Shown one piece after another: positions 16,031 through 52,165 of a stretch of 64,000 bases of DNA; positions within the stretch are counted from its first letter, which is position 1; each line of letters opens with the position of its first letter. The position numbers and the translations under genes were made by a program. The notes below the pieces were generated by a model, which made no database searches, was not told the DNA's origin, and saw only the letters and a list, made by a program, of their open reading frames with translations. Where the stretch lies: sequence record OM982647. One strand, given 5' to 3'. Source of the stretch: Escherichia phage ST2.

Positions 16031-16080
16031 AAGTACCTCTTAGCTCAATTCATAGGTCTATTATATCATAATATTTAGAG
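16031..16080 (-). promoter_or_regulatory. promoter with stem-loop upstream of gene 55
   Basis: Minus strand TAGGTCT ... TATAAT ... AGACCTA inverted repeat around -10 (approximate span). Confidence 0.4.
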
Positions 16081-16102
16081 ACCTATCTTAAAGCACGAGA
16101 TA

Positions 16103-16372
16103 CTATCGGAGCAAACAATAAGCCTGAAACACTTTTTCCATTAAACGTTTGAACTCATGGATATCGATATAAAGCTCAGTAAGACCGGCATTATAAAGAA
16201 AATCTAAAAAGTTCTCATGTGTTTCGTTATAGTCGCCTTCGTTTAATTGAGATACATGAGTTTCCCAAAAACCAACACCTTTAACGAATGGAAAATACGT
16301 GACTTTCATGTATTCGTCAACATAAAATTCGCCCAGCTTTTCTTCAGTTATACTGATTCGAGTTAATTTCAT
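16103..16372 (-). CDS. hypothetical protein
   Basis: 89 aa track ORF. Confidence 0.5.
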   Translation of the reverse strand: MKLTRISITEEKLGEFYVDEYMKVTYFPFVKGVGFWETHVSQLNEGDYNETHENFLDFLYNAGLTELYIDIHEFKRLMEKVFQAYCLLR

Positions 16373-16596
16373 TCTAGTTCCTTTGCTGCTTCAAGAGCAG
16401 CATCCAGCGAATCAAATTGGTCAACGAAATCAATATTCAACGCATCGTCAACCGTAGCATATAACCACCATTGTTTGAATTCATATTCTAGAATAAATCC
16501 AGGACCTTCAATCTGAGGAAGACCTAGGCTATTTGTACTAACTTCGTAACCAGCTAGACGCAGGTCATTAATCAAAGTTTCTGTTAATACGCTCAT
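16369..16596 (-). CDS. hypothetical protein
   Basis: 75 aa track ORF, overlapping start/stop. Confidence 0.5.
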   Translation of the reverse strand: MSVLTETLINDLRLAGYEVSTNSLGLPQIEGPGFILEYEFKQWWLYATVDDALNIDFVDQFDSLDAALEAAKELE

Positions 16597-16925
16597 TTTA
16601 CCGCCTTAACAATTTTCAGGTCAACAAATTTTTTCTTACGTTGATTTTTCATACGACGGATAGTCTTTTCAGAGATTTCATGTTTCTGATAAGCTTTAGA
16701 TTCAACACCAAATGCAGCAACGTCAAATTCAGAAAGAATATATTGTACTAGAATTTCACGAATAGAATTACGTCCAATTTTCTGGTCGTGTTTTTGCATG
16801 ATTTCATAAAGACGGAATTCCCATGCGTCAAGAACTTGAGGAGTAACAATATTGCCGGATTCCAGAAGAGCAACAACTTTATCGAAAGCGAAAGAATTAA
16901 CTACGTTTTTGATTTTAGTAGACAT
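16593..16925 (-). CDS. hypothetical protein (110 aa)
   Basis: Start moved to ATG 16923-16925 (MSTKIK) after GAGGAAA; upstream in-frame codons lie in promoter. Confidence 0.5.
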   Translation of the reverse strand: MSTKIKNVVNSFAFDKVVALLESGNIVTPQVLDAWEFRLYEIMQKHDQKIGRNSIREILVQYILSEFDVAAFGVESKAYQKHEISEKTIRRMKNQRKKKFVDLKIVKAVK

Positions 16926-16962
16926 ATTATTTTCCTCGGTTATTTTATTATCCAACGAGAGA

Positions 16963-16992
16963 ATTATACTCATCTCTCAAGAGTTTGTATAC
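16963..16992 (-). promoter_or_regulatory. early promoter with inverted repeat flanking -10
   Basis: Minus strand GTATAC ... GAGAGA-TGAG-TATAAT-TCTCTC. Confidence 0.5.
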
Positions 16993-17231
16993 TATTTTTT
17001 AAGCATGAAAAGTAAGTAATTTGTATCACGTGGAGTAATATCAACACCCATATCAAAGATGCCTTTATAGATTGGGTATTTGTTTTCGGTTGTATCGAAG
17101 CTGAAACTATTTCCATCACAACTAACAGTAATAGCATCTGTTAAAATGTCATACTCAATCCTAACAATTGAATCCCCAATTTTAATGTCGAGGTGTTTTT
17201 TGAATTTGATAAAATCTAATTCTTGGGCCAT
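16992..17231 (-). CDS. hypothetical protein
   Basis: 79 aa track ORF. Confidence 0.5.
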   Translation of the reverse strand: MAQELDFIKFKKHLDIKIGDSIVRIEYDILTDAITVSCDGNSFSFDTTENKYPIYKGIFDMGVDITPRDTNYLLFMLKK

Positions 17232-17294
17232 GATATTTTCCTCATTTTAAGAGGATAGGAAGACATGTTATTATCTTCCTACCATCGTAAACTA

Positions 17295-17495
17295 TTAACC
17301 GAACTTTTTAGCGCCTTTCCAGCCTTCGTACATAACTGCGCAAGTCAATAGCACAGCATGTTGGCATTCTTTGTATTTGTAAATCCAGAACCAGCGTAAA
17401 AAGTCTTCATCCTCAACACCGTTGAGTTTCATATTGGCAAAGAATTCGGCACGTTCTTCACGAAGTTGCCATGACACAATATTTTCAGGATTCAT
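17295..17495 (-). CDS. hypothetical protein
   Basis: 66 aa track ORF. Confidence 0.45.
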   Translation of the reverse strand: MNPENIVSWQLREERAEFFANMKLNGVEDEDFLRWFWIYKYKECQHAVLLTCAVMYEGWKGAKKFG

Positions 17496-17627
17496 TTAAA
17501 TTTCCCAATTGCCATTTTCATCAATAAATTTAATCCAGTCAGTTACTGACCACTTAGTTGTATCGCCTTTTGGAGTAGCATTTAAAGTGTAGAACCCTTG
17601 CTTAAAAAGCCAGCGTTTGATATTCAT
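17496..17627 (-). CDS. hypothetical protein (43 aa)
   Basis: ATG 17625-17627 after GAGGAAA; longer track ORF overlaps upstream gene. Confidence 0.4.
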   Translation of the reverse strand: MNIKRWLFKQGFYTLNATPKGDTTKWSVTDWIKFIDENGNWEI

Positions 17628-17634
17628 AATTTCC

Positions 17635-17928
17635 TCAACTGTAACGATAACATTCGTTAGCTTTACGTTTGGCTTCAGTATGAGAAGTATTATAATCATA
17701 ATCTTCTTTACTGTAAACATCTTTTTTCAACTTACGAACTTCTTTGCGGAGTTGTCGATTCATTTCATTCTTGACTTCAGAATCAACGCCTTTCATACGT
17801 TTCCATTTATCTGAGCGGAAAATGTTTTCAACCATGTTTTTGTGGCTAACACCGTCAGGAGCTTTACGCTTACCAAAATAGTCGTAATCACGAACTTTCA
17901 AATCTTTACGACGATATGTTTTACCCAT
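17635..17928 (-). CDS. hypothetical basic protein (97 aa)
   Basis: ATG 17926-17928 after GAGG; Lys/Arg-rich. Confidence 0.5.
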   Translation of the reverse strand: MGKTYRRKDLKVRDYDYFGKRKAPDGVSHKNMVENIFRSDKWKRMKGVDSEVKNEMNRQLRKEVRKLKKDVYSKEDYDYNTSHTEAKRKANECYRYS

Positions 17929-17935
17929 AAGTACC

Positions 17936-18184
17936 TCAGAGGTTGATTGATACAACACGTTTGATAAAATTCACTTCACTTACTGAAAGGTCTTTAAGAC
18001 CGATTGATTCTAAACGCTGAGTAAGCGTCAACATCGGGATATAATCCCATTGAGTTTTATTTGCTTGATAAGTACGAACGCCATTAGCAATTTCAACATG
18101 TAAATCGGAAATGGTAACGAATACCGGTCGCTCGTCATTAACTTTAAGGGTTAGAACAACTTTCTTTGAATCTAAACTAATCAT
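17936..18184 (-). CDS. hypothetical protein
   Basis: 82 aa track ORF. Confidence 0.5.
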   Translation of the reverse strand: MISLDSKKVVLTLKVNDERPVFVTISDLHVEIANGVRTYQANKTQWDYIPMLTLTQRLESIGLKDLSVSEVNFIKRVVSINL

Positions 18185-18363: not shown

Positions 18364-18528
18364 TTTATTTTCCTCTATAGTAGATGGTTTAATCTTAACA
18401 CATCTATTGAGGATGTAAACTGTTTTATGAAAATATTTTCGATTTGAGAGGGGCACAAGGAGATAGTGAAGTGAAGATTCCAATGGATTATATTAGAAAT
18501 GAGATAAAGAAGACCAGGCGGCACCTGG

Positions 18529-19135: not shown

Positions 19136-19137
19136 AA

Positions 19138-23990: not shown

Positions 23991-24295
23991 TATAATGTTC
24001 TCTCAAATTTGTGGAAGCATTTACGGCATTTCAATTTCAAGTTATCAGTGGTCCAGTTAACCAGTTGGACTTGGATAGTTCCACATTCCGGGCATGGATG
24101 TTTTGCTGCCGATTTGGCAGCATTTTCACGTCGTTCAACCATTTTCATTATTTCGTTCCATGCCGGAGGAACGAACTCTTCTTCACCGTGGATTTTATCT
24201 CGTTGAACAAATTCAATCTTTGAACTATCGTCAATAAACTTAACCAAGCTGTGATTAGTGCTCATATCAATATCCTCTAAAAGACGTAGTTTCAT
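23990..24295 (-). CDS. zinc-ribbon protein
   Basis: 101 aa; CPEC ... CRKC. Confidence 0.5.
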   Translation of the reverse strand: MKLRLLEDIDMSTNHSLVKFIDDSSKIEFVQRDKIHGEEEFVPPAWNEIMKMVERRENAAKSAAKHPCPECGTIQVQLVNWTTDNLKLKCRKCFHKFERTL

Positions 24296-25245
24296 TATAA
24301 CACCTCAATGGCATTTCGTAAACCATCCGCTTTTGCATTCAGAGCTTTTAATGATTTAGTTTGTTCTGCAATCTGGGCTTCGACTTCTTTCAGACGAGAT
24401 TTGAGATATTCGCGTTCTTCTCTTAAGTTATCAACTTTTTCTGCTTTAGGCTCTTTAATAGGCTTAGGCTTATACTCGTTAGGGTTCTTCAACTTAATTT
24501 GAATGCGAGAACTGTATAACATTGAGCCATTATCTTCGGTTTCATCATACATTTCCACTACATCCATAATTTTTAGCATCATACGAAGTTTATAAGACAG
24601 CGAACGAACGGTTTTGTTGCGCTTATTAATTTCTTCGGCTTTCATAGTACCGAGATTACGTGAGTAGTAATAAGGAACCTGGATATCAATTGACAATGAT
24701 GCGTTACCATTACCAGTTGGTTTGAATACTGCAGTAACCCAATCTTTAACATGAACTTTATTTGTACGGTCATCGCCGCCTGTGAATAATTTACATGAAT
24801 GTTTAAAAAGCATATTCACTTGGTTATTGAATTCACAAGCAAATTTATCAGCAAATTTAGTTTCAGGAATGGTAGAGAACCAATCAGCCAAATGAGTCTT
24901 TTTAACATCATTAACAATAGTGAATTCAACCAAATCGGTTTTAGATGTCACAGATTTAATAAAGCTCGGTTTCATAAAGTTTTTAATGTTATCGCGAGCT
25001 ACAGTAGAAGATAATAAACGAGAACGTTTGAACCATTGAAGCAGCGTCCCTAATGAATGAGAATACGCATTCTGAGTATCTTTACAGATATGATTTTCTT
25101 GACCTGTGTATGTACCAAAATCTCGAAGAATGCCACTTACTACAACTCGGTGTGGAACATCAAATCCTAATGAACCAGAAGCACGTTGGGCATGAACGTT
25201 AGCGATAAGGCCTGCAAAGTATTCAATGTAATGTGAACGTGTCAT
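24295..25245 (-). CDS. hypothetical protein with C-terminal coiled coil
   Basis: 316 aa; heptad-like C-terminus. Confidence 0.55.
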   Translation of the reverse strand: MTRSHYIEYFAGLIANVHAQRASGSLGFDVPHRVVVSGILRDFGTYTGQENHICKDTQNAYSHSLGTLLQWFKRSRLLSSTVARDNIKNFMKPSFIKSVTSKTDLVEFTIVNDVKKTHLADWFSTIPETKFADKFACEFNNQVNMLFKHSCKLFTGGDDRTNKVHVKDWVTAVFKPTGNGNASLSIDIQVPYYYSRNLGTMKAEEINKRNKTVRSLSYKLRMMLKIMDVVEMYDETEDNGSMLYSSRIQIKLKNPNEYKPKPIKEPKAEKVDNLREEREYLKSRLKEVEAQIAEQTKSLKALNAKADGLRNAIEVL

Positions 25246-25273: not shown

Positions 25274-25303
25274 ATTATACTCCAACCATCCTTGGTTGTA
25301 AAC
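25274..25303 (-). promoter_or_regulatory. early promoter GTTTAC-N18-TATAAT with spacer hairpin
   Basis: Minus strand GTTTACAACCAAGGATGGTTGGAGTATAAT. Confidence 0.55.
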
Positions 25304-26266: not shown

Positions 26267-26296
26267 ATTATACTCCAACCATCCTTGGTTGTACAT
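26267..26296 (-). promoter_or_regulatory. early promoter, near-duplicate of 25274-25303
   Basis: Minus strand TGTACAACCAAGGATGGTTGGAGTATAAT. Confidence 0.55.
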
Positions 26297-27911: not shown

Positions 27912-27940
27912 ATAATAACATAACCATAGACCTTGTAAAC
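27912..27940 (-). promoter_or_regulatory. early promoter/stem-loop cassette
   Basis: Minus strand GTTTAC-N17-TATTAT with AGACCTAT inverted repeat. Confidence 0.45.
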
Positions 27941-28368: not shown

Positions 28369-29370
28369 TTATTTCAGTAAAGTTACTTCAGAGATTTCCT
28401 CCCAACCATCTTTATCAGTTGAAATAAAATCTGCTACATAAAGAGCCGTACGTAATGATACATTGCGAAGACGAGATACGTTAGCCTTCATCCAAGACAA
28501 TGCTTTATACGTTTCTGCATCAGTCAGACCACGTTTCTGCATCATGTCAGTAGATAATATTACATCTTCAACTCGAACCATAATCTCTTCATTAGAGTGT
28601 ACTCCAAGGTCGAGATACACTGAACGAGATACTAAAGCTTGAAGGTGTGGAGCAAGTTTAGAACCGCGTTCTAACTCTTTATCGATATCAACATTTGTAA
28701 TGAAAACGATAGTACCTTCAAACTCAAATTCTTTATCAATACCCTTATCATCGAGATAAGATGACGCAGTGCTCCAGCAAACTTTGCGTTTATCACCGGT
28801 ATCTAATGCTGCTTTAAGAAGGTTCAAGATGTCCATATCTGAGAATACGTCAACGTCGTCGATTAAGAGAACGCTGTCTGCATCACGGTTGAGCCAAAGT
28901 TGTTCGTAAAGACCAATACCAGAGATTTTACCATTAATGCTTTTGTATTTGATGAAACCATTATCATTAGCATTATTAAGTGCTTTATCCAGAGAATACG
29001 TCTTACCAATACCAGCTGCACCTGAAATAATGAGTGAACGAATTTTGCCATCGATAATGCCATTCGTCATCATGTTCATTACTTTAAAGCGTTTGTTGAT
29101 ACGAGTTTTCATATCTTCAGTGCTTTCAACAACTGCAACTGGTGATGTCTCAACTCCTTCCATTACGATGTCTGATTTGAAGACCCATACTCCACGTTCA
29201 GAACCATCAATCATAACGAAAATTTTACCATCACCTAAGTGGGAACATTCAGGATTAAGCTTTGCCGGGAACCAGGTCTTTGTGGCAACATAAGAACCAG
29301 AGATTTCGTTATTACGATAGATACCTTTTTTGATTTGAACGTTGAACATTTTATTCTCCAATTTACTCAT
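28369..29370 (-). CDS. AAA+/P-loop ATPase
   Basis: 333 aa; Walker A GAAGIGKT, Walker B LLIDDVD. Confidence 0.7.
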   Translation of the reverse strand: MSKLENKMFNVQIKKGIYRNNEISGSYVATKTWFPAKLNPECSHLGDGKIFVMIDGSERGVWVFKSDIVMEGVETSPVAVVESTEDMKTRINKRFKVMNMMTNGIIDGKIRSLIISGAAGIGKTYSLDKALNNANDNGFIKYKSINGKISGIGLYEQLWLNRDADSVLLIDDVDVFSDMDILNLLKAALDTGDKRKVCWSTASSYLDDKGIDKEFEFEGTIVFITNVDIDKELERGSKLAPHLQALVSRSVYLDLGVHSNEEIMVRVEDVILSTDMMQKRGLTDAETYKALSWMKANVSRLRNVSLRTALYVADFISTDKDGWEEISEVTLLK

Positions 29371-29379
29371 TTTGTTTCG

Positions 29380-29418
29380 ATAGGTCTATAATAACATGTT
29401 TAAAGCAAAAGTAAACAA
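29380..29418 (-). promoter_or_regulatory. early promoter/stem-loop cassette
   Basis: Minus strand GTTTAC-N17-TATTATAGACCTATC. Confidence 0.45.
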
Positions 29419-29649: not shown

Positions 29650-29692
29650 TTGTTTTGATAGGTCTATAATAACATATCCTAAAAGTATGTAC
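29650..29692 (-). promoter_or_regulatory. early promoter/stem-loop cassette
   Basis: Minus strand TGTACA ... TATTATAGACCTATC. Confidence 0.4.
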
Positions 29693-29700
29693 ACTACTTT

Positions 29701-32039: not shown

Positions 32040-32085
32040 GTTCGTTTTGATAGGACCACTATAACATAGTCCTACCAAGACGTAA
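32040..32085 (-). promoter_or_regulatory. early promoter/stem-loop cassette
   Basis: Minus strand GTTTAC-N18-TATAGT inside TAGGACTA/TGGTCCTA inverted repeat. Confidence 0.5.
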
Positions 32086-32086
32086 A

Positions 32087-32320
32087 CTACCGATTGTGTT
32101 TTAAATGTTGATAAAGCTCTTCAACTTGTTTAGGGTCCAAAACAATTAAGTCATTTTCTTGGCGAAGATAAATCCATCCCTTATCCCCAGGACCATTTTT
32201 ACAAAACATCACCACCATATCATCATCTTCAGCGCTTTCAGGTAAAAGTTCAAGTACACCGTCTTCAGATTTTCCAGTATAATCGTAAAGCATAATATCC
32301 TCACATAATCTCGTTAACAT
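32087..32320 (-). CDS. hypothetical protein
   Basis: 77 aa. Confidence 0.5.
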   Translation of the reverse strand: MLTRLCEDIMLYDYTGKSEDGVLELLPESAEDDDMVVMFCKNGPGDKGWIYLRQENDLIVLDPKQVEELYQHLKHNR

Positions 32321-32496: not shown

Positions 32497-32535
32497 AAGT
32501 AAGGTCTACTATAACACAACCTGAGGAGAAGTAAA
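32497..32535 (-). promoter_or_regulatory. early promoter GTTTAC-N17-TATAGT
   Basis: Minus strand AGTTTACTTCTCCTCAGGTTGTGTTATAGT. Confidence 0.45.
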
Positions 32536-32545
32536 CTGATAGATG

Positions 32546-32575
32546 CCAAAAAGCCCCAACCTTTCGGAAGGGGCT
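32546..32575 (-). terminator. rho-independent terminator (copy 1 of 3 identical hairpins)
   Basis: Minus strand AGCCCCTTCCGAAAGGTTGGGGCT plus T5. Confidence 0.7.
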
Positions 32576-32581
32576 AGTAAA

Positions 32582-33910: not shown

Positions 33911-34134
33911 TTAGGTTCACCTTCTTTAACGAAATCTGGGTAAGGGTAAAATCCTGAGTAAAACCCTTCACCTTTATGATTGCTACAACCTTTGTTCGAA
34001 CAGTAACACCAATAATCAAAATCACAAGCCATTTCGTCATTGCATAAAGCAAAAACTACAGGCCATTCGCATTTTTCGCATTTAGCACCTGTAAGAATTT
34101 TTGTTTGACTCATAGCCATGTCACCTTTAAGCAA
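33907..34134 (-). CDS. Cys-rich zinc-finger-like protein
   Basis: 75 aa; CEKCEW ... CNDEMAC ... CYCSNKGC. Confidence 0.5.
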   Translation of the reverse strand: MLKGDMAMSQTKILTGAKCEKCEWPVVFALCNDEMACDFDYWCYCSNKGCSNHKGEGFYSGFYPYPDFVKEGEPK

Positions 34135-34337
34135 TATTCTTCTACATGTTGTTTACGGCCTTTCTTATCAATAAAGGTATATTCAACGAATGTTCCGATG
34201 TAGTCTTTATCTACATCATGTGGACTATTAATTGGACATTTTGTACGGCAAATGCGTTCCCATTGACGAATAATTACTGCCTTATTCTTTGGGTCATACG
34301 GATGTGGATAATGTATATTCATAACAATGGTTCCCAA
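34110..34337 (-). CDS. hypothetical protein
   Basis: 75 aa. Confidence 0.45.
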   Translation of the reverse strand: MGTIVMNIHYPHPYDPKNKAVIIRQWERICRTKCPINSPHDVDKDYIGTFVEYTFIDKKGRKQHVEEYCLKVTWL

Positions 34338-36147: not shown

Positions 36148-36190
36148 AGTTGACAGGTCTATAGTAACACAACTAGAGGAGAAGTAAACT
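36148..36190 (-). promoter_or_regulatory. early promoter/stem-loop cassette
   Basis: Minus strand GTTTAC ... TATAGACCTGTC. Confidence 0.4.
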
Positions 36191-38081: not shown

Positions 38082-38255
38082 TTAGTTTCTCTTTTAGGTT
38101 GGGGCCATTCCGTGGCACATGTTAGGTCCTTCGACTCGCTATGTAAACCCATTACCGCACTTGGGCTCGACCTTATTACAGGTTGGAAAAGGTACATCAC
38201 TCAGAGGACTCGACGTTCATAAGGAGAGGTTGCGTTTCCCTTTATTAGGCAAGAA

Positions 38256-38585
38256 TTATACTCTAGGCTTTTGAGCTTGTTTGGTATTGGATTCCCATGC
38301 GGCTTTGGTAATTTTGTTAGCGGCATAACCAAAGGCATTAGATAGAACACCTTTAGAGTTGAATACATCCAATCCAATAAGTACACCGGCTGTGTTAAAT
38401 TTAGGAGCAAAGTACGCATTAGTTTTAGAAAGAGCTTTTTTCAATTCAGGGTCTTGAACCAAGCTATCAAAAACGCCTTTACTATTTACTTTATATGTTA
38501 CTTTGGGATTTTTACCTTCTTCGATAGCAGCTTTCTGTTCCGCAGATAATGTAACTTCAGTGATAAACTCTTGATATGTTTTCAT
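38256..38585 (-). CDS. internal (capsid-packaged) protein candidate with CTS leader
   Basis: N-terminus MKTYQEFITE (capsid targeting sequence ending in Glu). Confidence 0.65.
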   Translation of the reverse strand: MKTYQEFITEVTLSAEQKAAIEEGKNPKVTYKVNSKGVFDSLVQDPELKKALSKTNAYFAPKFNTAGVLIGLDVFNSKGVLSNAFGYAANKITKAAWESNTKQAQKPRV

Positions 38586-38610
38586 TTTGTTCCTATTGTT
38601 TTAATTTATG

Positions 38611-38925
38611 TTATTCTTTAGGGAAGTTTTTAGAGTATGCATCATAAAGTTTATTACCAATACGGCGGAAGACTTTAGCTGCAAAACGGTTTTCAGGGTT
38701 TTTAATCATGATTTGCATCATGTAAGTTCCTGCATCCGAAAGAGCTTCTTCGTAGTACCCATTAATTTCTTTAAGAGTCCTACGTTTACCACCAGGACCA
38801 TCAACAGTAATTTTCCATTTACCTGTAGAAGTGCGGCTCGGTGGCTCAACTTGTTCAATCCAAATATAACCACCTTCAACGCGTTGGTTGGCGGATTCTG
38901 CAATAAATTCTTTATACGTTTTCAT
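38611..38925 (-). CDS. internal protein candidate with CTS leader
   Basis: N-terminus MKTYKEFIAE. Confidence 0.65.
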   Translation of the reverse strand: MKTYKEFIAESANQRVEGGYIWIEQVEPPSRTSTGKWKITVDGPGGKRRTLKEINGYYEEALSDAGTYMMQIMIKNPENRFAAKVFRRIGNKLYDAYSKNFPKE

Positions 38926-38939
38926 TTTTTGTTTCCTTG

Positions 38940-38989: not shown

Positions 38990-39250
38990 TTAAGCTTTAC
39001 CGCCAGAAATAATTCCGAAGTTGTTAAAATCGTATCCAATATCGTCAACATCTACTTTAGGACTTACTACAACATAAGCAATTTCACTACGTTTTGCATA
39101 GGTGTTGATTTCTTTACCATCGCCACCTAAGAAAGAATACCCATTACGTTTTAATGAGCCAAAGTCTTCCGCATCACCAATGAAAGCTTTAACTTTAAAT
39201 TTAGGACCTTTGGCGTCTGCTTCAATGATAAATTCTTGATACATTTTCAT
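38990..39250 (-). CDS. internal protein candidate with CTS leader
   Basis: N-terminus MKMYQEFIIE. Confidence 0.6.
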   Translation of the reverse strand: MKMYQEFIIEADAKGPKFKVKAFIGDAEDFGSLKRNGYSFLGGDGKEINTYAKRSEIAYVVVSPKVDVDDIGYDFNNFGIISGGKA

Positions 39251-39256
39251 TTTTCC

Positions 39257-39682: not shown

Positions 39683-39727
39683 GTAGTTGATGAATGTATA
39701 GTATCAAAGTCCTTGGAGGAAGTAAAC
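39683..39727 (-). promoter_or_regulatory. early promoter GTTTAC-N18-TACTAT
   Basis: Minus strand GTTTACTTCCTCCAAGGACTTTGATACTAT. Confidence 0.45.
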
Positions 39728-39728: not shown

Positions 39729-40010
39729 CTATTTTTCTGAAGCGCCTGAAATATATTTTTCAAGACGTTGTTTCATCAGCGAGCCGTTCTTAGCGATTTC
39801 TTCCGGTTTATCGCACATACGCAACAAGGCTTCAAGCTTAACGATATCACTGGTACGTTCAAATTTGCGAGTATCTATCTTACTGGCAAGTTCAGAAATA
39901 CGTGCTAATAGACTTTCGGCTTCAACCAAAGCTGCACCTAGCTTAGTTGCAAACGTGTCAGTAGCTTCATTAAGAATAGATTCTGATAAAAATTCACTAT
40001 ATGTTTTCAT
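39729..40010 (-). CDS. internal protein candidate with CTS leader
   Basis: ATG 40008-40010 overlaps lysozyme stop; N-terminus [10 protein letters not shown]. Confidence 0.6.
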
Positions 40011-40495
40011 ATATACGCTTTCCAAGTTCCTGTTTTAAATGTTGAGATTACGCGTTTCGCGCGATTAGGTGTCTGGCGATACCATTTAGATTTGGCTAGA
40101 TTTACTGCCGCTTCATCCCAACGTTTCTGTTGAAGCATACGAAGAGAATTAGTAAAACCAGCGACGCCTGCTACACCCATTTGGAAGACCATATTGACCA
40201 ATGCACATCGACGAACCGCGTCTAAAGAATCATACACCGGTTTAAGTTTAGCATTACCCAAGATTCCGCGAACGGCTTTATCAACGTCTTCATTAAATAG
40301 CTTTTCGGCCTCATCAAGGGTAATTGTACCGTTGCATTTACGTCCGACCATTCTGTCAAGTTCAGCTTTAGCTACGGCTAAAGAAGGGTTCTTTGTTACT
40401 AAATGGCCTATGCCAATCGTCCAAAAGCCTTCAGTGTCTTTGTATAAAGTCAGCCTAAGACCTTCGTCATTACGAAGCATTTCAAATATATTCAT
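40007..40495 (-). CDS. e: lysozyme (endolysin) e
   Basis: T4 lysozyme-like from [15 protein letters not shown] (ATG 40493-40495). Confidence 0.95.
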
Positions 40496-42702: not shown

Positions 42703-42752
42703 TCCTCATGTTTTAATAGGACTACTATAACATAGCCCTATAATTGTGTAAA
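42703..42752 (-). promoter_or_regulatory. early promoter/stem-loop cassette (near-identical copy A)
   Basis: Minus strand GTTTAC-N18-TATAGT inside ATAGGGCTA/TAGTCCTAT inverted repeat. Confidence 0.5.
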
Positions 42753-42766
42753 CAGTTTTTGTGAAG

Positions 42767-44010: not shown

Positions 44011-44052
44011 GATAGGACTACTATAACATAGCCCTATCTTGTTGTAAACTGT
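44011..44052 (-). promoter_or_regulatory. early promoter/stem-loop cassette (near-identical copy B)
   Basis: Same about 40-bp element as 42703-42752 and 51769-51812. Confidence 0.5.
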
Positions 44053-44848: not shown

Positions 44849-45204
44849 TTTCTACATTCCTTAATAAAGTTTTCGATTGTTTCATTTTCACGTCTAGCTA
44901 AGAGTTCATTATAACTAATCATTTGAGAAGCGTAAACCTTTTTATTTTTCTTATTATGGTTTATAAAATCGTAGTAAAAATAGACTACAGTACAAAAGGA
45001 TGCGATGGATGCAAAGGCTTGGGTATACCGTAAGTCCTGCCATTGGTCTGTGAATCCACCGGTATTCCCTATAAATCCTAACACAACGCCGTCAATAAGA
45101 AATCCAACTAATCCAAAGGCAAATCCCATGCCAATACTCATAATAAAAATTAGAATGTTCTCACCAAGAGACGGCCATACAGTTAAGAGTTGAGGCTTTT
45201 GCAT
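44845..45204 (-). CDS. hypothetical membrane protein
   Basis: 119 aa; multiple hydrophobic helices. Confidence 0.5.
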   Translation of the reverse strand: MQKPQLLTVWPSLGENILIFIMSIGMGFAFGLVGFLIDGVVLGFIGNTGGFTDQWQDLRYTQAFASIASFCTVVYFYYDFINHNKKNKKVYASQMISYNELLARRENETIENFIKECRK

Positions 45205-46170: not shown

Positions 46171-46198
46171 AAGGAGGACCGGAGTCCTCCGTATTATT

Positions 46199-46833: not shown

Positions 46834-46862
46834 ATTATACTCTGCTCTCAAGAGTTTGTAAA
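46834..46862 (-). promoter_or_regulatory. early promoter with inverted repeat flanking -10
   Basis: Minus strand TTTACA ... GAGAGC-AGAG-TATAAT-GCTCTC; paralog of 16963-16992. Confidence 0.5.
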
Positions 46863-47090
46863 TTATTTTTTAATCAAATTGACATAAAACTTGGCGTCTT
46901 CCGGGTGCATGCCTTCGCAGTATTCTTCAACCATGAACTTCTTAATAGCTTCATAAGGACCACTCAGATTAAGCTCAGTTGTCCAGAACTTGGAATCTTG
47001 GACTGAATCGATACGAACTTCAGGGTGTCGGTTGCGAATAACTTCTTCGGTGTATTCGTAATCAACGACATCAATACTAACTGTAGCCAT
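46863..47090 (-). CDS. hypothetical protein
   Basis: 75 aa. Confidence 0.5.
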   Translation of the reverse strand: MATVSIDVVDYEYTEEVIRNRHPEVRIDSVQDSKFWTTELNLSGPYEAIKKFMVEEYCEGMHPEDAKFYVNLIKK

Positions 47091-47137
47091 TTTGTTTCTC
47101 CTCTTGATTTGATGTGATTACTATATCATAAACTTAC

Positions 47138-47302
47138 TTAGATGTAAATTATTTCAACGTCACCTTTAGCTGCTTTATAACCTTCAGCCCAAGATACAAC
47201 AGAGTTTTTATCCGAGGATTCAAATTCAGGCATTGGACTTTCACCAATATTCACACAGTATGTTTCTTCATTTTCGTCGAACCAAATAATTAAAGTAGTC
47301 AT
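47138..47302 (-). CDS. small hypothetical protein (54 aa), not in ORF track
   Basis: ATG 47300-47302 after GAGGAG, downstream of promoter 47320-47365. Confidence 0.4.
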   Translation of the reverse strand: MTTLIIWFDENEETYCVNIGESPMPEFESSDKNSVVSWAEGYKAAKGDVEIIYI

Positions 47303-47319: not shown

Positions 47320-47365
47320 AGTTGATAAGTCTATAGTATCACCGTCCTTGGCGTTTGTACATCAT
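47320..47365 (-). promoter_or_regulatory. early promoter/stem-loop cassette
   Basis: Minus strand TGTACAAACGCCAAGGACGGTGATACTATAGAC. Confidence 0.4.
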
Positions 47366-47369: not shown

Positions 47370-47702
47370 TTATTTTTTCCAACTTAACAACTTGTAGTGT
47401 CCTTCACTCGTACGAGGTTTATCCCAAGAAATACTAATATATGATTCGCTGTCAATAGAAGTCGCCGGGTTTTTCTCTACCGTAAGACCTTCACTTTCCA
47501 GCCATTCAATAGTATTTGCGCATAAATCAGAAGAACACCTAATCGGAAACCGGCAAGATTTTTCACCTTTAGCTGCAGTGTTATACATCTTTTCTAAAAT
47601 ACGCTTTTGCACGTTTTTAAAAATAGTTTCAGCAGATTCTTCAGATTTTTTATTCAGTTCAGTATAAAGACTCATAACATTCTTCTCATTAATAGGGCTC
47701 AT
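47370..47702 (-). CDS. hypothetical protein
   Basis: 110 aa. Confidence 0.5.
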   Translation of the reverse strand: MSPINEKNVMSLYTELNKKSEESAETIFKNVQKRILEKMYNTAAKGEKSCRFPIRCSSDLCANTIEWLESEGLTVEKNPATSIDSESYISISWDKPRTSEGHYKLLSWKK

Positions 47703-47732
47703 AATATCTTAATCATGAGCCCATGTACACAT

Positions 47733-48008: not shown

Positions 48009-48029
48009 GTTTTTTCTGTATCGGTAGTT

Positions 48030-48075
48030 GATAGTTGTATAGTACCACGGAAGAACAGGGATGTAAACAGTTTTG
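48030..48075 (-). promoter_or_regulatory. early promoter GTTTAC-N18-TACTAT
   Basis: Minus strand GTTTACATCCCTGTTCTTCCGTGGTACTAT. Confidence 0.45.
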
Positions 48076-48136: not shown

Positions 48137-48163
48137 CAAAAAGCCCTATCATTTAGATAGGGC
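48137..48163 (-). terminator. rho-independent terminator
   Basis: Minus strand GCCCTATCTAAATGATAGGGC plus T5, after stop of 48171-48734. Confidence 0.65.
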
Positions 48164-48170
48164 TTTAAAA

Positions 48171-48734
48171 TTATTTACCTAGTTTAGTTATTATAGCTTC
48201 GGCAGCAGCTTTTAGCTTAGATGCAGTGTTAATACGATTTTTAATTTCAGTATACGCATCGCCAAGAACATCAAGGCTATCAGAATAAACACTTACACTA
48301 TTGCGTTCGCTATTTGAAATAGAACCTTTAGTTTTACGATCAAAATCAGTGTACACGTCTTGAAGATCACGGGCTGCCTTCTTTGCATCATCCAATGCAT
48401 CAAGAGCTTTATTCAAAGCATTGACATATTTTTTAGTGTCAAACATATTCTTAGAAATTTTAACAGGTGCACGTTCAGGAGTAGCTAAGGCGGATTTAGG
48501 AACCTGCGTGCCAGATGCCAGTTTCTTAGAAATTTTGAAAAACGCTTTATTGAAACTATTTTCTTGACTCATCGTAAAAGAACTAGTATCGATGTTATAC
48601 ATTTCAATAGCTTTAGCTTTCCACTTAAGAAAATCGCCACGGTCTTTTGGATCCAAGTGGAAGAATACTTTAGTAAGATCTGCTTCAGATGGTAATTTTG
48701 CTGCTTCGGTTAAAAATTCGGCATAGGTTTTCAT
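48171..48734 (-). CDS. internal protein candidate with CTS leader (187 aa)
   Basis: N-terminus MKTYAEFLTE. Confidence 0.65.
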   Translation of the reverse strand: MKTYAEFLTEAAKLPSEADLTKVFFHLDPKDRGDFLKWKAKAIEMYNIDTSSFTMSQENSFNKAFFKISKKLASGTQVPKSALATPERAPVKISKNMFDTKKYVNALNKALDALDDAKKAARDLQDVYTDFDRKTKGSISNSERNSVSVYSDSLDVLGDAYTEIKNRINTASKLKAAAEAIITKLGK

Positions 48735-48824
48735 TTAAAATCCTTGAAATAATTTATCGGTTTGTTATTAATTATTTATTACTTTGGTATTATCAGTAAC
48801 AGCATTCTCCGAGTGAGTCAAACT

Positions 48825-48851
48825 AAAAAGCCCCAACCTTTCGGAAGGGGC
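48825..48851 (-). terminator. rho-independent terminator (copy 2 of 3)
   Basis: Same GCCCCTTCCGAAAGGTTGGGGC hairpin plus T-run. Confidence 0.7.
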
Positions 48852-48857
48852 ATTCTA

Positions 48858-49322
48858 TTATTTAATTTGTTTAGCAGACCAGATACGGTCTTTAATAAGT
48901 TTTTGGATATCTTCAACATACTCAAGGCTATGAGCGTGAGGATTATCTTTGAAGCTATGTGCTCGTGCCAGTTTCTGGCCTTCTGTTTTGATTACTAAAA
49001 GCTCTTTAAGAATTGCTTCATACTTAGAAATAATTCCTTTGGCGATATTTTTTTCTTGAGCGGCTTTAGGGTCCGCTTTTGGCACAGGTGCTTTACCTGT
49101 AGCTTTCTGGAACAATTCACCTGATGCAGCTAGGCTTTTAAAAACTCGGCTAACAGTATTAGCATTAGTAAAACCTTCGGCTTTAAAATCTCTAATAAAA
49201 CGGAAACGTTCTTCATCAGAGGCGTCTTTGTAAGAATATTTACCTGCTTGAATTGCTGCAATCGCAGCGGCTTTTACATCTGAACTAGATTGTTCAGTCA
49301 AAAATTCAGCGTATGATTTCAT
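48858..49322 (-). CDS. internal protein candidate with CTS leader (154 aa)
   Basis: N-terminus MKSYAEFLTE. Confidence 0.65.
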   Translation of the reverse strand: MKSYAEFLTEQSSSDVKAAAIAAIQAGKYSYKDASDEERFRFIRDFKAEGFTNANTVSRVFKSLAASGELFQKATGKAPVPKADPKAAQEKNIAKGIISKYEAILKELLVIKTEGQKLARAHSFKDNPHAHSLEYVEDIQKLIKDRIWSAKQIK

Positions 49323-49367
49323 GTTGCTTTTCCTAAGTTAATTAACTTATCTATTTATTATTATGCC

Positions 49368-49397
49368 AAAAAAAAGCCCCAACCTTTCGGAAGGGGC
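49368..49397 (-). terminator. rho-independent terminator (copy 3 of 3), ends tRNA/small-RNA transcript
   Basis: Hairpin plus T8 on minus strand. Confidence 0.7.
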
Positions 49398-49700
49398 TAT
49401 GCCTTGCGGCAACCTTGTCGGGGTTCCACCTGCTAAGGCAAGTGTTTGTACGAAACGCCGGGATTCGAACCCGGTTATTAAGTAGTTGACGCTACTCAAT
49501 ATTTTTAAAAGGCCATATCTCGACCATATCCGAACGTTCCGTCAAAAACGCTACTCGGCTTACGGCAAAGATATTTCCTCGAATCGATAATTCGGTGCGC
49601 CGTTTCTGCTGTGATGTAAGGGGATATTAACAAATCGTAAAGATTTATTAAGACCAGTCCTTACGCAGGGAACATCAGTCCGACGACTTACCGGTAGCGA
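49398..49700 (-). ncRNA. candidate small stable RNA(s) downstream of tRNA cluster (T4 rnaC/rnaD-like position)
   Basis: About 300 nt non-coding; tRNA-like T-arm CCGGGTTCGAATCCCGG on minus strand near 49458-49474; ends at terminator. Confidence 0.35.
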
Positions 49701-49709
49701 CCCGGCTTC

Positions 49710-50054
49710 TTATTTTGACATATCATCAATTTGCTCTCGACGCCGACGCCATAGATTAATCACTTCATTAACACATTCGGCGTTTGGTATATGACGGCAA
49801 TAATATAATGATTCGCGTTTCTGGAACCGATGTTGCAATGGGATTTCGTTTAAAAGGTCTTTACGGTCAAAGTATTCAAAACTAGTTAACCCAGAACGAT
49901 TTTTAATGAACTTCCAATGTCCAAATTCATTTTGAACATAGATGTAATCGGCATGCTGATACAACGAATTAATCAATCGGTCTGAAATAACTGTATCATG
50001 TTCGTTAAAATAAAACGTTAAATCATGAACTACTAAGTAAACATTACCTTTCAT
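49710..50054 (-). CDS. hypothetical protein
   Basis: 114 aa between tRNA cluster and small-RNA region. Confidence 0.5.
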   Translation of the reverse strand: MKGNVYLVVHDLTFYFNEHDTVISDRLINSLYQHADYIYVQNEFGHWKFIKNRSGLTSFEYFDRKDLLNEIPLQHRFQKRESLYYCRHIPNAECVNEVINLWRRRREQIDDMSK

Positions 50055-50073
50055 ATTTTCCTCACTTATTAAA

Positions 50074-50149
50074 TGGTCGAGACAGTAGGGATCGAACCTA
50101 CGACCTAGGACTTAGAAGGTCCTTGCTCTTCCTTCTGAGCTATGCCTCG
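50074..50149 (-). tRNA. tRNA-Arg (anticodon UCU)
   Basis: Manual cloverleaf: acceptor CGAGGCA/TGTCTCG, D-arm GCTC..GAGC, anticodon loop CTTCTAA, T-arm GTAGGTTCGATCCCTAC, encoded CCA. Confidence 0.8.
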
Positions 50150-50153
50150 TATT

Positions 50154-50228
50154 TGGCGGACGTGCATGGATTCGAACCATGGGCCAATTGATTAACAGTC
50201 AACTGCTCTACCACTGAGCTACACATCC
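50154..50228 (-). tRNA. tRNA-Asn (anticodon GUU)
   Basis: Acceptor GGATGTG/CACGTCC, anticodon loop CTGTTAA, T-arm CCATGGTTCGAATCCATG, encoded CCA. Confidence 0.8.
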
Positions 50229-50232
50229 AAAT

Positions 50233-50307
50233 TGGTGGCCCTGGCTGGTTTCGATCCAGCTACCTATCAGTTATGAGCTGACAGCTCTCCCATTGAGCTA
50301 CAGGGCC
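50233..50307 (-). tRNA. tRNA with CAU anticodon (Met or Ile)
   Basis: Acceptor GGCCCTG/CAGGGCC, anticodon loop CTCATAA, T-arm GCTGGATCGAAACCAGC, encoded CCA. Confidence 0.75.
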
Positions 50308-50386
50308 TAAATAACTTTCTATTACCAAAGGCACTTTAGAGTGCCTTTGGTAATAGAGGGTATGAATTAATAATAACACATAATTC

Positions 50387-50902
50387 TTAAAGCAAATCAA
50401 TCATTTTAACAGTTGGCAAAACGATTTCTTCTTCAATATAAGCAAATTCAACACATTCAACTACACGCAAGAAATCATAATCATAATATTCAGAAGCATG
50501 GCCAAGAATACCAGTGAGACCTTCTGATACTAAATATCCGTTCTCACAGAAAAGGTCGAATACACGCGATTCGTCTTCTTCAGATTTATTACCAAGGTCG
50601 ACTTCAATATCAAAGACCTTTTTAATGAATTCTGGATAAAGCTGGTCTGAGAACAGTCCTTCAACCAAGTATTCATAGATTAAAAGCGAGCAATCACTGA
50701 ATAGTGTATTACCACAGTAACGTTCAGCTTTAGTGCTAGAATGACGACTCTTAAATTTCTTCAAAAGATATTTAAACTGTTGGAGCTCATGCTCTTCCAC
50801 TTCAAACAATGTTTTGGTTTTATAGTTGTCACCATCATTTTCGTAGGTAGTGACGTCAATTACGTAGCCCTTAGGAATTGTACTGCCTAAACAAATATTC
50901 AT
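50387..50902 (-). CDS. hypothetical protein
   Basis: 171 aa acidic ORF. Confidence 0.5.
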   Translation of the reverse strand: MNICLGSTIPKGYVIDVTTYENDGDNYKTKTLFEVEEHELQQFKYLLKKFKSRHSSTKAERYCGNTLFSDCSLLIYEYLVEGLFSDQLYPEFIKKVFDIEVDLGNKSEEDESRVFDLFCENGYLVSEGLTGILGHASEYYDYDFLRVVECVEFAYIEEEIVLPTVKMIDLL

Positions 50903-50906
50903 TTAC

Positions 50907-51197
50907 TCACCGTACCATATTAATGTAATTATATTCAATGCAACGTAATTTCAAAGGATTCTTGAAAATATCATATTCAAGAGGGCCTTTTTCTGTTTCA
51001 ATAAAGAAATCAAAGTTAACTGTGTTAAATTTATCATCTTCACAGAGTAATTTAACTTGCGAAGATGAACGGTCGATATAAACCTTTTCAACCTCAAAGT
51101 TAGTCAGAATACCATAGTCATTAACTAGTGCTTTAGCTGCACGTTGATCGCTTTCATATCCATTCTCGACAGATTTTACTTTAGCATAAAGAATCAT
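50907..51197 (-). CDS. hypothetical protein
   Basis: 96 aa. Confidence 0.5.
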   Translation of the reverse strand: MILYAKVKSVENGYESDQRAAKALVNDYGILTNFEVEKVYIDRSSSQVKLLCEDDKFNTVNFDFFIETEKGPLEYDIFKNPLKLRCIEYNYINMVR

Positions 51198-51556
51198 GAG
51201 TGTTCCACCACTTCAAAGGTATGAGCATCAACAATATGATACCAGTCAAAATTTTCTTCTGCGTTTTTATAAATTTCGCGAAGAGCCTCAACAGTTTTTC
51301 CTGTAGCAACAAGGTCGTCAATACCACCAAGAGGATAACAGTCATAACCAGCAAACAGAAGGAAATTAATAGTTTCTGTAGGTTCTGGATGCAGAACTCC
51401 GTTATCGTCTACCACTTCAAAGAAAGTGTAAGAAGGAGTACAAGTTTTAATCCAGGCCCATGCTTGAGCCGCTGAATCAAATGGTCTGCGTATCAAACGA
51501 CAATCAGGGTCTTTAGAAGGATTTGCTTCAAAATCTGCATATACATGATATTTCAT
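51194..51556 (-). CDS. hypothetical protein
   Basis: 120 aa. Confidence 0.5.
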   Translation of the reverse strand: MKYHVYADFEANPSKDPDCRLIRRPFDSAAQAWAWIKTCTPSYTFFEVVDDNGVLHPEPTETINFLLFAGYDCYPLGGIDDLVATGKTVEALREIYKNAEENFDWYHIVDAHTFEVVEHS

Positions 51557-51763
51557 TTACTCACCTTTTGCAATTTTATCCATAACAATAGCGATTAAAC
51601 CGATTAGAAATGCTACTACCAATGAGATAGAGTTTTCAGTTGTTGTCAGTAGTCCACAAATGAATCCTACAAACATCGAAAAACTAAAAGCCATTGAAGC
51701 AATTACTACAGCAACATTACGAATCAGTTCAGCGCGTTTCATTTTATTTCTCCATTTACTCAT
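51557..51763 (-). CDS. hypothetical membrane protein
   Basis: 68 aa; two hydrophobic helices. Confidence 0.5.
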   Translation of the reverse strand: MSKWRNKMKRAELIRNVAVVIASMAFSFSMFVGFICGLLTTTENSISLVVAFLIGLIAIVMDKIAKGE

Positions 51764-51768
51764 TTGTT

Positions 51769-51812
51769 TTGATAGGACTACTATAACATAGTCCTATCGT
51801 GTTGTAAACTAC
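51769..51812 (-). promoter_or_regulatory. early promoter/stem-loop cassette (near-identical copy C)
   Basis: Minus strand GTTTACAACACGATAGGACTATGTTATAGTAGTCCTATC. Confidence 0.5.
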
Positions 51813-52100
51813 TTACAGAAGAGTTTTTGCAATAATTTTAAGCTGAGCTACAGAAATATGCTTAGCTTTAAACAGTGCGGTCTCTTCAGCCGGAGAGATA
51901 ACAATAGTAGCGCCGTCTTTCTTAGCAGACCATCCGTCCCCTAAGTAAACAGTACCTTTTACTTCTTCACCGTCAACCAGACTAATCATTGGTTTACCCT
52001 CACGTCCTTTATTTGTTTTAATAACTTCAGAAGTAAGGGATGCTTCGGTCAGAGTAGAAATGTTAGCAACAGGTGATATAAATTCTTTATAGGTTTTCAT
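51813..52100 (-). CDS. internal protein candidate at the IPI locus with CTS-like leader
   Basis: N-terminus MKTYKEFISP...; adjacent to 57B as T4 ipI. Confidence 0.6.
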   Translation of the reverse strand: MKTYKEFISPVANISTLTEASLTSEVIKTNKGREGKPMISLVDGEEVKGTVYLGDGWSAKKDGATIVISPAEETALFKAKHISVAQLKIIAKTLL

Positions 52101-52121
52101 TTTATTTCCTTGAGGCTGTTT

Positions 52122-52165
52122 ATTTGATAGGATGATAGTATCACACCATCATCCTTATGTAAACC
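52122..52165 (-). promoter_or_regulatory. early promoter GTTTAC-N18-TACTAT with AGGATGAT/ATCATCCT inverted repeat
   Basis: Minus strand GTTTACATAAGGATGATGGTGTGATACTATCATCCT. Confidence 0.45.

Follow-up and report, generated by a model that had tools for sequence, protein, structure and literature searches.

The early region of phage ST2 and its promoter cassettes

The stretch of DNA analyzed here, 64,000 nucleotides (nt) of Escherichia phage ST2 (sequence record OM982647; the window, below), carries in its early region a family of repeated promoter cassettes, about half of which can fold into a hairpin around the -10 element, and these cassettes are the subject of this report. By megablast against a phage collection, the segment from 40 to 52 kb of the window is 98% identical to PhAPEC2 and about 95% identical to RB69, and by this measure the window is that of an RB69-like T4-type coliphage (Mosigvirus, Tevenvirinae). 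The interval holding the cassettes, positions 16,031 to 52,165, corresponds to the RB69/T4 early region with gene 55, nrdC, tk, vs, regB, denV, e, the e.x genes, the tRNA cluster, ipI, and 57A, and transcription of the early region runs entirely on the minus strand.

An unbiased repeat search of the window returned the cassettes as its largest families. A sequence-only reading had described about twenty minus-strand elements composed of GTTTAC, a spacer of 17-18 nt, and a TATAAT-type hexamer. The strict patterns GTTTAC-N17-TAYWRT and GTTTAC-N18-TAYWRT matched 4 and 12 times, respectively, as opposed to 0.09 and 0.22 times (about 0.3 together) in shuffled sequence, and all 16 matches lie on the minus strand between 17.7 and 52.2 kb, which bears out the description. 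With one mismatch in the -35 hexamer tolerated and a downstream Shine-Dalgarno (SD) sequence and ATG made obligatory, the count is 25 T4-type early-promoter cassettes rather than about twenty, all of them minus-strand and confined to 16.96-52.16 kb (from gp55 to ipI). The flanking replication and late-gene blocks of the window contain none; all cassettes fall in the variable early region, in keeping with the recombinationally plastic accessory zone that had been proposed. The claim that such an element precedes most small early genes did not hold, as 25 cassettes among about 90 genes amount to roughly one gene in three or four. The 25 cassettes are as follows (ORF, open reading frame).

16963-16992 (-), upstream of the gp55.2 homologue; -35 GTATAC, -10 TATAAT; stem GAGAGA/TCTCTC around the -10
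17265-17292 (-), upstream of the RB69ORF075c homologue; -10 TAACAT; stem TAGGAAGA/TCTTCCTA; -20.0 kcal/mol, z = -4.5
18392-18420 (-), upstream of the gp55.6 homologue; stem TAGATG/CATCTA plus CCTC..GAGG extending to the SD sequence
24294-24323 (-), candidate at the nrdC.3/nrdC.2 junction; consensus hexamers without a stem; within coding sequence and the weakest assignment
25274-25303 (-), upstream of nrdC.3; small hairpin AACCA-agga-TGGTT entirely inside the spacer; twin of 26267-26296
26267-26296 (-), upstream of an nrdC.5-like gene; degenerate -35 ATGTAC; spacer and -10 the same as in 25274-25303
27912-27940 (-), upstream of nrdC.8; stem AGGTCTAT/ATAGACCT around the -10
29388-29416 (-), upstream of nrdC.10; no clear stem
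29666-29694 (-), upstream of the RB69ORF102c homologue; -35 GTGTAC; no clear stem
32058-32087 (-), upstream of a MobD.2-like 36-aa ORF; stem TAGGAC/GTCCTA (ATAGGACTA family)
32508-32536 (-), upstream of mobD.2a; spacer TTCTCCTC pairs with the SD sequence GAGGAGAA; preceded by a terminator repeat
36161-36189 (-), regB promoter; 14-bp stem TTCTCCTCTAGTTG/CAACTAGAGGAGAA with the -10 and start site in the loop and the SD sequence in the 3' arm; -21.6 kcal/mol, z = -4.9
38119-38148 (-), weak candidate upstream of vs.8; GTTTAC, -10 TAACAT; at the edge of a replaced internal-protein segment
38957-38986 (-), upstream of an RB69ORF124c-like gene; consensus hexamers, no clear stem; 19-20 bp from the edge of the 38186-38903 replacement
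39698-39727 (-), denV promoter; 10-bp stem TTCCTCCAAG/CTTGGAGGAA occluding the SD sequence; -17.8 kcal/mol, z = -5.2
42724-42753 (-), upstream of the RB69ORF133c homologue; ATAGGGCTA/TAGTCCTAT with one G.U pair
44020-44049 (-), upstream of the RB69ORF135c homologue; GATAGGGCTA/TAGTCCTATC with one G.U pair
44908-44937 (-), upstream of the RB69ORF139c homologue; perfect hexamers without a stem; long leader of 59 nt
46834-46863 (-), upstream of e.6; stem GAGAGC/GCTCTC; z = -3.3; paralogue of 16963-16992
47120-47149 (-), upstream of frd.3; ATTTAC, TATAGT; no clear stem; downstream limit of the ORF145c module
47333-47362 (-), upstream of the RB69ORF145c homologue; degenerate ATGTAC-18-TACTAT; upstream limit of the ORF145c module
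47701-47730 (-), upstream of the RB69ORF146c homologue; stem GGGCTCAT/ATGAGCCC around the -10; -17.8 kcal/mol, z = -4.0
48039-48068 (-), upstream of e.8; no stem; preceded by a canonical terminator at 48138-48166
51780-51809 (-), upstream of the tRNA.4 homologue; 10-bp stem GATAGGACTA/TAGTCCTATC; -16.6 kcal/mol, z = -5.8
52135-52164 (-), upstream of ipI; stem AGGATGAT/ATCATCCT; z = -3.3

The conserved unit is real but longer than the 40 bp or so first ascribed to it. It spans about 65 nt (60-70 nt) and runs from an A-rich upstream region through GTTTAC(A), 17-18 nt, TGn-TATAAT, the start region CCTATCAA, and a leader of about 20 nt to the SD sequence and ATG. Across the 25 cassettes, the -35 consensus is G21 T24 T20 T24 A24 C25 A16 and the -10 consensus is T24 A25 T17 A13 A18 T24, preceded by T-G in 17-18 of the 25 and followed by agaCCTATCAA (aga-CCTATCAA). 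The upstream 25 nt are 73% A+T (42% A) as compared with 63% (33% A) region-wide, and the consensus directly before the -35 is the A-rich 8-mer AAAAAATA. The distance from the -10 to the ATG is 25-42 nt in 23 of the 25 cassettes, with a mode of 27-28 nt, and stop codons of the preceding genes are visible upstream of the cassettes, except for 24294-24323 inside coding sequence. This consensus, including TGn and the C at -3 to -1, agrees with descriptions of the RB69 and T4 early promoters (Nolan 2006, PMC1524935; Hinton 2010).

Some cassettes are copies of one another, as the sequence-only reading had noticed. The near-identical copies that it placed at 42703-42752, 44011-44052, and 51769-51812 were recovered at 42724-42753, 44020-44049, and 51780-51809, all three following GTTTAC-N5-(G)ATAGG(A/G)CTA-tgt-TATAGT-AGTCCTAT(C). 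Its two pairs were confirmed as well: 25274-25303 and 26267-26296 are identical across 27 nt (repeat family D19), and 16963-16992 and 46834-46863 share 90% identity across 62 nt (repeat family D13).

Matching promoter sequences precede the homologous regB, denV, nrdC.8, and ipI genes in T4, and 57 early promoters have already been predicted for RB69 (Nolan 2006, PMC1524935). Given that prediction, the promoters themselves are not new. The cassettes are probably the sigma70-dependent early promoters of the phage, of the T4 type, with their activity deduced from homology to T4, RB69, and RB49; to the reading as a whole we assign a probability of about 0.8.

Two cassettes have a leader in common, AAACAAAATGAGTAAAT(T)GGAGAA(A/T)TAAAATG, at 51740-51770 and 29347-29377, which contains a possible upstream start. 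The extra ATG, in or out of frame, lies 21-24 nt upstream of the annotated one and leaves the start codons of the tRNA.4 and nrdC.10 homologues ambiguous.

A hairpin around the -10 element is under selection

Window stem statistics were computed on 22 promoters of the window. Taking the longest perfect helix around the -10 in each, the mean is 6.45 bp, whereas shuffling of the spacer and downstream segments gave 4.47 +/- 0.21 bp, with a maximum of 5.32 bp in 500 shuffles. Stems of at least 6 bp enclosing the -10 occur in 13 of the 22 promoters as opposed to 2.9 expected, and individual window hairpins reach -14 to -22 kcal/mol in standard folding, with z scores down to -5.8. The inverted repeat around the -10 that had been pointed out from the letters is thus real, albeit with a clear stem in only about half of the cassettes. 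The stems are unrelated in sequence between cassettes (ATAGGACTA/TAGTCCTAT, AGGTCTAT/ATAGACCT, GGGCTCAT/ATGAGCCC, AGGATGAT/ATCATCCT, and TAGGAAGA/TCTTCCTA), and the paralogous pair 16963/46834 differs by one compensated base pair (GAGAGA/TCTCTC versus GAGAGC/GCTCTC).

We compared the window with 30 syntenic loci from viral contigs, T4, and six Mosigvirus genomes. Stem enrichment was found in every lineage tested, including T4 itself (6.25 versus 4.40 +/- 0.24 bp). A wider set of 136 non-redundant early promoters across lineages resolved the anatomy of the hairpin. The 5' arms peak in the spacer (0.35 versus 0.06), the loop lies over the -10 (0.48 versus 0.18), and the 3' arms peak at the start site (0.28 versus 0.07) with a shoulder over the SD sequence (0.17 versus 0.07), while a separate, weaker class of hairpins upstream of the -35 consists of true terminators. 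Stems of 6 bp or more are present in 67 of the 136 promoters; their 3' arm ends at the -10 or start site in 45 and extends to the SD sequence in 22. The 5' arm is located within the spacer, and the inferred start, the A of CCTATC 7 nt after the -10, falls in the loop. In all hairpin geometries, a transcript begun about 7 nt after the -10 is without the 5' arm; the internal promoter thus appears to be placed so that its own transcript lacks one half of the hairpin.

Selection for pairing was assessed without an alignment: the 5' half from a given lineage was paired with the 3' half from the same lineage and, for comparison, with those from other lineages. Covariation by alignment columns was dropped, as MAFFT left the SD cores of the regB promoters out of register. 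The own stem was longer than the cross-lineage stem for regB (11.4 versus 6.2 bp), gp55.2 (6.75 versus 4.17 bp), tRNA.4 (7.1 versus 5.05 bp), and denV (7.0 versus 5.1 bp). The regB sample comprised 42 loci with 30 distinct upstream regions, in all of which the promoter is there. A perfect stem of at least 7 bp from the spacer right after the -35 to the SD sequence is present in 21 of the 30, in at least 10 compensated versions, and most of the remaining upstream regions have a hairpin of the start-site type. The gp55.2 orthologues hold their stem through compensatory changes (GAGAGC/GCTCTC, GGGACC/GGTCC, GAGGAC/GTCCTC). At the same place upstream of denV, T4 has the stem TCTCCTGTAG/CTACAGGAGA, and in some denV lineages there is a third geometry, in which the 5' arm covers the -10 and start and the 3' arm the SD sequence and AUG. 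The hairpin is under selection for pairing, with compensatory changes across genera that include T4.

One could also regard the palindromy as a functionless by-product of motifs shared by all promoters (AGG in the spacer, CCTATC at the start), with templated quasi-palindrome mutation perfecting repeats that arose by chance. T4 is the classic system for such templated mutations, and half of the promoters manage without a stem. When 3' halves were swapped among promoters with the conserved motifs kept, however, the helix reached only 4.87 +/- 0.27 bp (maximum 5.59 bp), well short of the observed mean; orthologous promoters across genera hold stems of unrelated sequence at the same position; and stems are depleted where a terminator precedes the promoter. 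We consider a by-product hardly credible.

Relation to known cassettes and exchange of modules

Promoter early stem-loop (PeSL) cassettes have been described in RB49/phi1 (Arbiol 2010, PMC2839356) and in PST/T4 and nt-1/KVP40 (Comeau 2014, PMC4122927). The likeness to them that had been drawn at first sight was supported in most features accessible from sequence, the terminator signature being an exception. Both have a strong sigma70-type early promoter with an A/T-rich upstream region and a 3' SD sequence and ATG, both have a stem-loop between the -35 and -10 or overlapping the -10, and both cluster in hyperplastic regions beside small accessory ORFs; stems with G.T pairs were reported for phi1 too (Arbiol 2010, PMC2839356). 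PeSLs are found at the edges of indels between closely related phages, a trait that four modules of the window share, although the boundaries as a whole show no excess over an intergenic null (below). The PeSL description further includes promoter activity in vivo and excised mini-circles (Arbiol 2010, PMC2839356). At the sequence level, the cassettes of the window fall within the PeSL definition and are the RB69-lineage version of the T4 early promoters. RB69 is not mentioned in Arbiol 2010 (PMC2839356), and the present set extends PeSL-type cassettes to the Mosigvirus group as well as annotating the early transcription map of an RB69-like phage.

There are also differences. PeSL promoters carry TTGACA, whereas the cassettes here have GTTTAC and TATAAT-like hexamers of the T4 type, and PeSL stems are polyG/polyC, whereas those here are A/T-rich and idiosyncratic. 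The stem-loops of T4 and PST were drawn just upstream of the promoter (Comeau 2014, PMC4122927), as opposed to the enriched position here and in T4, which encloses the -10. The role of the PeSL stem-loop as a terminator or attenuator is not matched here by sequence, as there is no U-tract. With the published T4-type early promoters (Nolan 2006, PMC1524935; Hinton 2010), the cassettes share the consensus (UP-like A-tract, GTTTAC, TGn, TATAAT, C at -3 to -1), the genomic positions before orthologues of T4 early genes and before novel ORFs, and the strand. T4-type early promoters are used by the unmodified host RNA polymerase right after infection. Those promoters were published as a linear motif, and self-complementarity around the -10 and its covariation lie outside that definition; the word "stem-loop" is absent from Nolan 2006 (PMC1524935).

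Comparison with eight relatives yielded 34 distinct length-changing events, 17 of which have a boundary within 10 bp of a cassette. Counted by boundaries, 24 of 68 are that close as opposed to 5.9% of random positions (p = 4e-13), an excess that is gone against an intergenic-only null, in which 39.5% of positions are equally close (p = 0.8). We do not claim that the cassettes attract breakpoints beyond being intergenic. What remains of the modular shuffling proposed at the outset are four modules whose junctions fall within cassettes, in three cases with overlaps of 21-48 bp, and these support the idea of PeSL shuffling.

The ORF075c module (16989-17295, 305 bp), missing from PhAPEC2, is bounded by two cassettes: 17265-17292 is its upstream limit, where the PhAPEC2 junction falls at the -35 hexamer, and 16963-16992 is its downstream limit. 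The ORF145c module (47104-47296, 191 bp), missing from PhAPEC2 and CCU7, lies between cassettes 47333-47362 and 47120-47149, and its junction is a 21-bp alignment overlap in the common leader GAGGAG-AAACAAAATG. WFbE185 has an additional 283-bp ORF at 51764-51811 with a 48-bp duplicated cassette on its flanks, and RB69 has an additional ORF156c (349 bp) inserted at 52081-52104 by the ipI cassette, with a 24-bp junction overlap. A fifth module, 48851-49371, has terminator repeats instead of promoter repeats at its edges. At cassette 32058-32087, an indel boundary relative to PhAPEC2 lies at a distance of 3-8 bp. The cassettes coincide in this way with the gain and loss of modules (internal proteins and small orphan ORFs), through which host range and counter-defence are probably tuned. 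Some chained blast junctions at about 29.4-32.6 kb and 42.7-45.4 kb in three loci were left unused as probably mis-chained paralogous cassettes.

The ATAGTAGTCCTAT sub-family (TATAGTAGTCCTAT cassettes) varies from 2 copies (CCU7) to 6 copies (RB69) in stretches of about 40 kb of Mosigvirus genomes that are about 95% identical, with 3 copies in the window and 3 in a shorter 20.6-kb segment of phiE142; the loci of other genera have zero copies. The JS98-like contigs have nearly the same cassette, GTTTAC-ATCTCCTGTAG-...-TACTAT-AGACCTATCAA-CTACAGGAGAT, before regB, denV, and, as ATCTCCAGTAG/CTACTGGAG, nrdC.8, and likewise T4 before denV. This copy variation and the reuse of one cassette point to exchange or conversion between cassettes. 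The hairpin type at nrdC.8 alternates as well, being of the start-site type in the window, whereas in the orthologous promoter of T4 and the JS98-like phages the spacer pairs with the SD sequence instead; together with the reuse in the JS98-like contigs, the switch suggests whole-cassette replacement between loci. As a further observation, which agrees with patchy conversion, RB69 has the TATAGTAGTCCTAT motif in its frd.3 promoter and the window does not.

Strand asymmetry and terminator signatures

Mismatches that interrupt the stems are G.T or T.G in 11 cases and A.C or C.A in 2 (p = 0.017 given composition). The folding z score, controlled for composition by shuffling, averages -2.55 for the sense strand and -1.94 for the antisense strand (paired p = 3e-7), while extension of the stems by G.U or C.A pairs gave no consistent strand signal. 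This strand asymmetry speaks for a structure of the sense strand rather than a symmetric cruciform. Because the stem signal is biased to the sense strand, the hairpin most likely acts as RNA, on transcripts that read through from upstream.

Inverted repeats can fold in DNA as in RNA, and indel junctions do fall in the cassettes. The repeats might accordingly work in DNA, as a cruciform or hairpin that modulates promoter opening or is cut by endo VII or gp46/47 to start recombination, with RNA folding being incidental. Besides the asymmetry in mismatches and folding, the loops of 25-34 nt in the SD class disfavour extrusion, and the 3' arm aims at the SD sequence or the start site, which are both features relevant to RNA. 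A role in DNA thus seems improbable to us.

A second alternative to an RNA device that spares transcription is that the stem-loops are terminators or attenuators halting RNA polymerase ahead of the next promoter, as first proposed for PeSLs. In RB49, a stem-loop placed between a promoter and lacZ cut expression about as far as rrnB T1 did (Arbiol 2010, PMC2839356), although this assay mixes termination with RNA decay or translation effects. The cassette hairpins of our set do not look like terminators. At least 5 T within the 8 nt after the hairpin were found in 1 of 58 cases, the tails averaging 4.1 A, and a terminator scan of the region called none of the cassette hairpins but found genuine terminators at 46173-46190, 48140-48166, and 50318-50357; loops of the SD class, moreover, are up to 34 nt long. 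With U-tracts lacking and tails A-rich, classical termination by the cassette hairpins is not supported by their sequence. Rfam at gathering thresholds reported three tRNAs only.

The hairpin is present in 2 of 12 promoters with a canonical terminator just upstream and in 65 of the 124 others (Fisher p = 0.03). Such rarity after a canonical terminator is as predicted for a device acting on read-through RNA, but the anticorrelation suits any insulator role, that of a terminator included. Taking both sides together, we regard termination or attenuation as unlikely.

Proposed translational gating from early promoters

Some cassettes are predicted to pair their SD sequence in a helix on the long transcript. 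This is only a subset, consisting of regB (14 bp), denV (10 bp), mobD.2a (8 bp), and in part gp55.6. The predicted probability that the ribosome-binding site (RBS) is unpaired is 0.30-0.41 on the long RNA and 0.51-0.84 on the cassette's own RNA in these cassettes; for gp55.6, the values are 0.41 on the read-through RNA and 0.84 on the RNA from its own promoter.

We propose the following scenario. The early promoters would fire right after infection, heading short operons of accessory early genes, and in about half of the cassettes the spacer is complementary to the start-site region or the SD sequence. As the promoters are in tandem and co-oriented, RNA from an upstream promoter would traverse the next cassette and fold the hairpin with the -10 in its loop, whereas RNA from the cassette's own promoter would begin inside or past the 3' arm and could not form it. 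The hairpin would thereby mark read-through RNA, since own-promoter RNA cannot fold it. Where the 3' arm contains the SD sequence (regB, denV, mobD.2a, gp55.6), translation of read-through RNA would be silenced, and expression of these genes would be limited to the period in which their own early promoter is active. In the other cassettes, the hairpin would most likely serve as an intercistronic insulator, by attenuation or as an RNA-decay barrier, replacing a classical terminator. As a side effect, repeated homologies of 30-70 bp at gene boundaries could provide crossover points for module gain, loss, and replacement.

We infer both the action at the RNA level and the translational gating. 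The full proposal is that the hairpin is a conserved RNA device separating own-promoter from read-through transcripts. Its SD form would confine translation of genes such as regB and denV to RNA from their own early promoters, so that synthesis ends at early-promoter shut-off despite middle-mode read-through, and its start-site form would insulate cistrons from one another independently of terminators, for instance by blocking RNase E scanning, or 3' exonucleases once RegB has cut. We put this forward tentatively, as a possibility short of an even chance.

RegB is an endoribonuclease that destroys early mRNAs. Its gene is tightly regulated, and its early promoter shuts off after 2-3 min (Uzan and Miller 2010), an early shut-off that would fit the gating idea. 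The shut-off of early promoters is still incompletely understood (Uzan and Miller 2010), and the stems may bear on how the synthesis of some early proteins stops despite continuing read-through transcription.

A related arrangement is known from T4 genes e, soc, 49, and I-TevI, in which the SD sequence and/or AUG is locked in a helix on long transcripts while a promoter in the 5' arm or loop yields a shorter, translated RNA (Uzan and Miller 2010). The logic is the same, with an SD helix on the long RNA and RNA from the internal promoter lacking the 5' arm. In those genes, however, the internal promoter is late (gp55, TATAAATA) and translation late-only, whereas here it is early and sigma70-dependent and translation of regB and denV is predicted to be early-only. 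If true, such early-only gating would be the mirror image of the late-only gating of the lysozyme gene e. Neither regB nor denV is on the list of hairpin-gated genes in Uzan and Miller 2010, and a literature search outside subscription journals for earlier SD-occluding early-promoter hairpins or RNA-seq of T4 start sites gave nothing relevant. Possibly new are the compensatory changes in the stems, their bias to one strand, their scarcity after terminators, and the hairpin that occludes the SD sequence at regB and denV and is conserved there; the most novel part is the SD-occluding early-promoter hairpin. Stems that covary, are biased to the sense strand, avoid terminators, and in several genera occlude the RBS of regB and denV lead to a testable regulatory hypothesis on insulation between dozens of tandem strong promoters.

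Several points weigh against the reading of the cassettes as hairpin-bearing early promoters. Promoter activity and start sites are carried over from T4 and RB49 by homology. No clear stem was found in 69 of the 136 promoters, and the hairpin is thus not obligatory. The strand-bias tests would come out alike for RNA and for a hairpin in the non-template DNA strand. Across all cassettes, RBS accessibility on long versus short RNA did not differ overall from that at promoter-less gene starts (p = 0.13); occlusion of the RBS in read-through RNA was for this reason rejected as a general feature and retained for the SD-pairing subset only. For the larger class, with the 3' arm ending at the start site, we can name no demonstrated molecular role. 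The loss of the breakpoint excess against the intergenic null belongs here as well.

Other features of the early region

Seven minus-strand ORFs with starts at 38585, 38925, 39250, about 40010, 48734, 49322, and 52100 have a common 5' end, ATGAAAACATATCAAGAGTTTAT, and an N-terminus MKTYQEFI..., with the repeat copies at 38556-38588, 38896-38928, 39221-39253, 39981-40013, 48705-48737, 49293-49325, and 52071-52103. We take this N-terminus to resemble the capsid-targeting sequence of the T4 internal proteins, and about seven injected internal proteins may be encoded in the window. Indel hot spots coincide with several of these ORFs: PhAPEC2 has an IpIII-like gene in place of 38186-38903, and RB69 lacks the 48851-49371 module.

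The terminator hairpin GCCCCTTCCGAAAGGTTGGGGCTTTTT (sense strand) occurs three times, at 32548-32576, 48825-48853, and 49371-49399, with a diverged copy at 48138-48166. Two of the copies flank a 519-bp module (ORF 48858-49322) that is missing from RB69, with a 27-bp junction overlap, which implies that repeated terminators, too, serve as crossover sites.

Three tRNA genes, Arg(tct), Asn(gtt), and Met(cat), are located at 50074-50307 (-), directly downstream of an 18-bp perfect hairpin at 50318-50357. In the tRNA annotation, RB69 and several relatives have Arg and Met only, whereas PhAPEC2 has three.

At 33918-34329, a 410-bp insertion relative to RB69 and PhAPEC2 places two small overlapping ORFs between tk.2 and tk.4. 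It has no promoter cassette at its edges and a junction overlap of about 5 bp, and WFbE185 has half of it (34114-34319).

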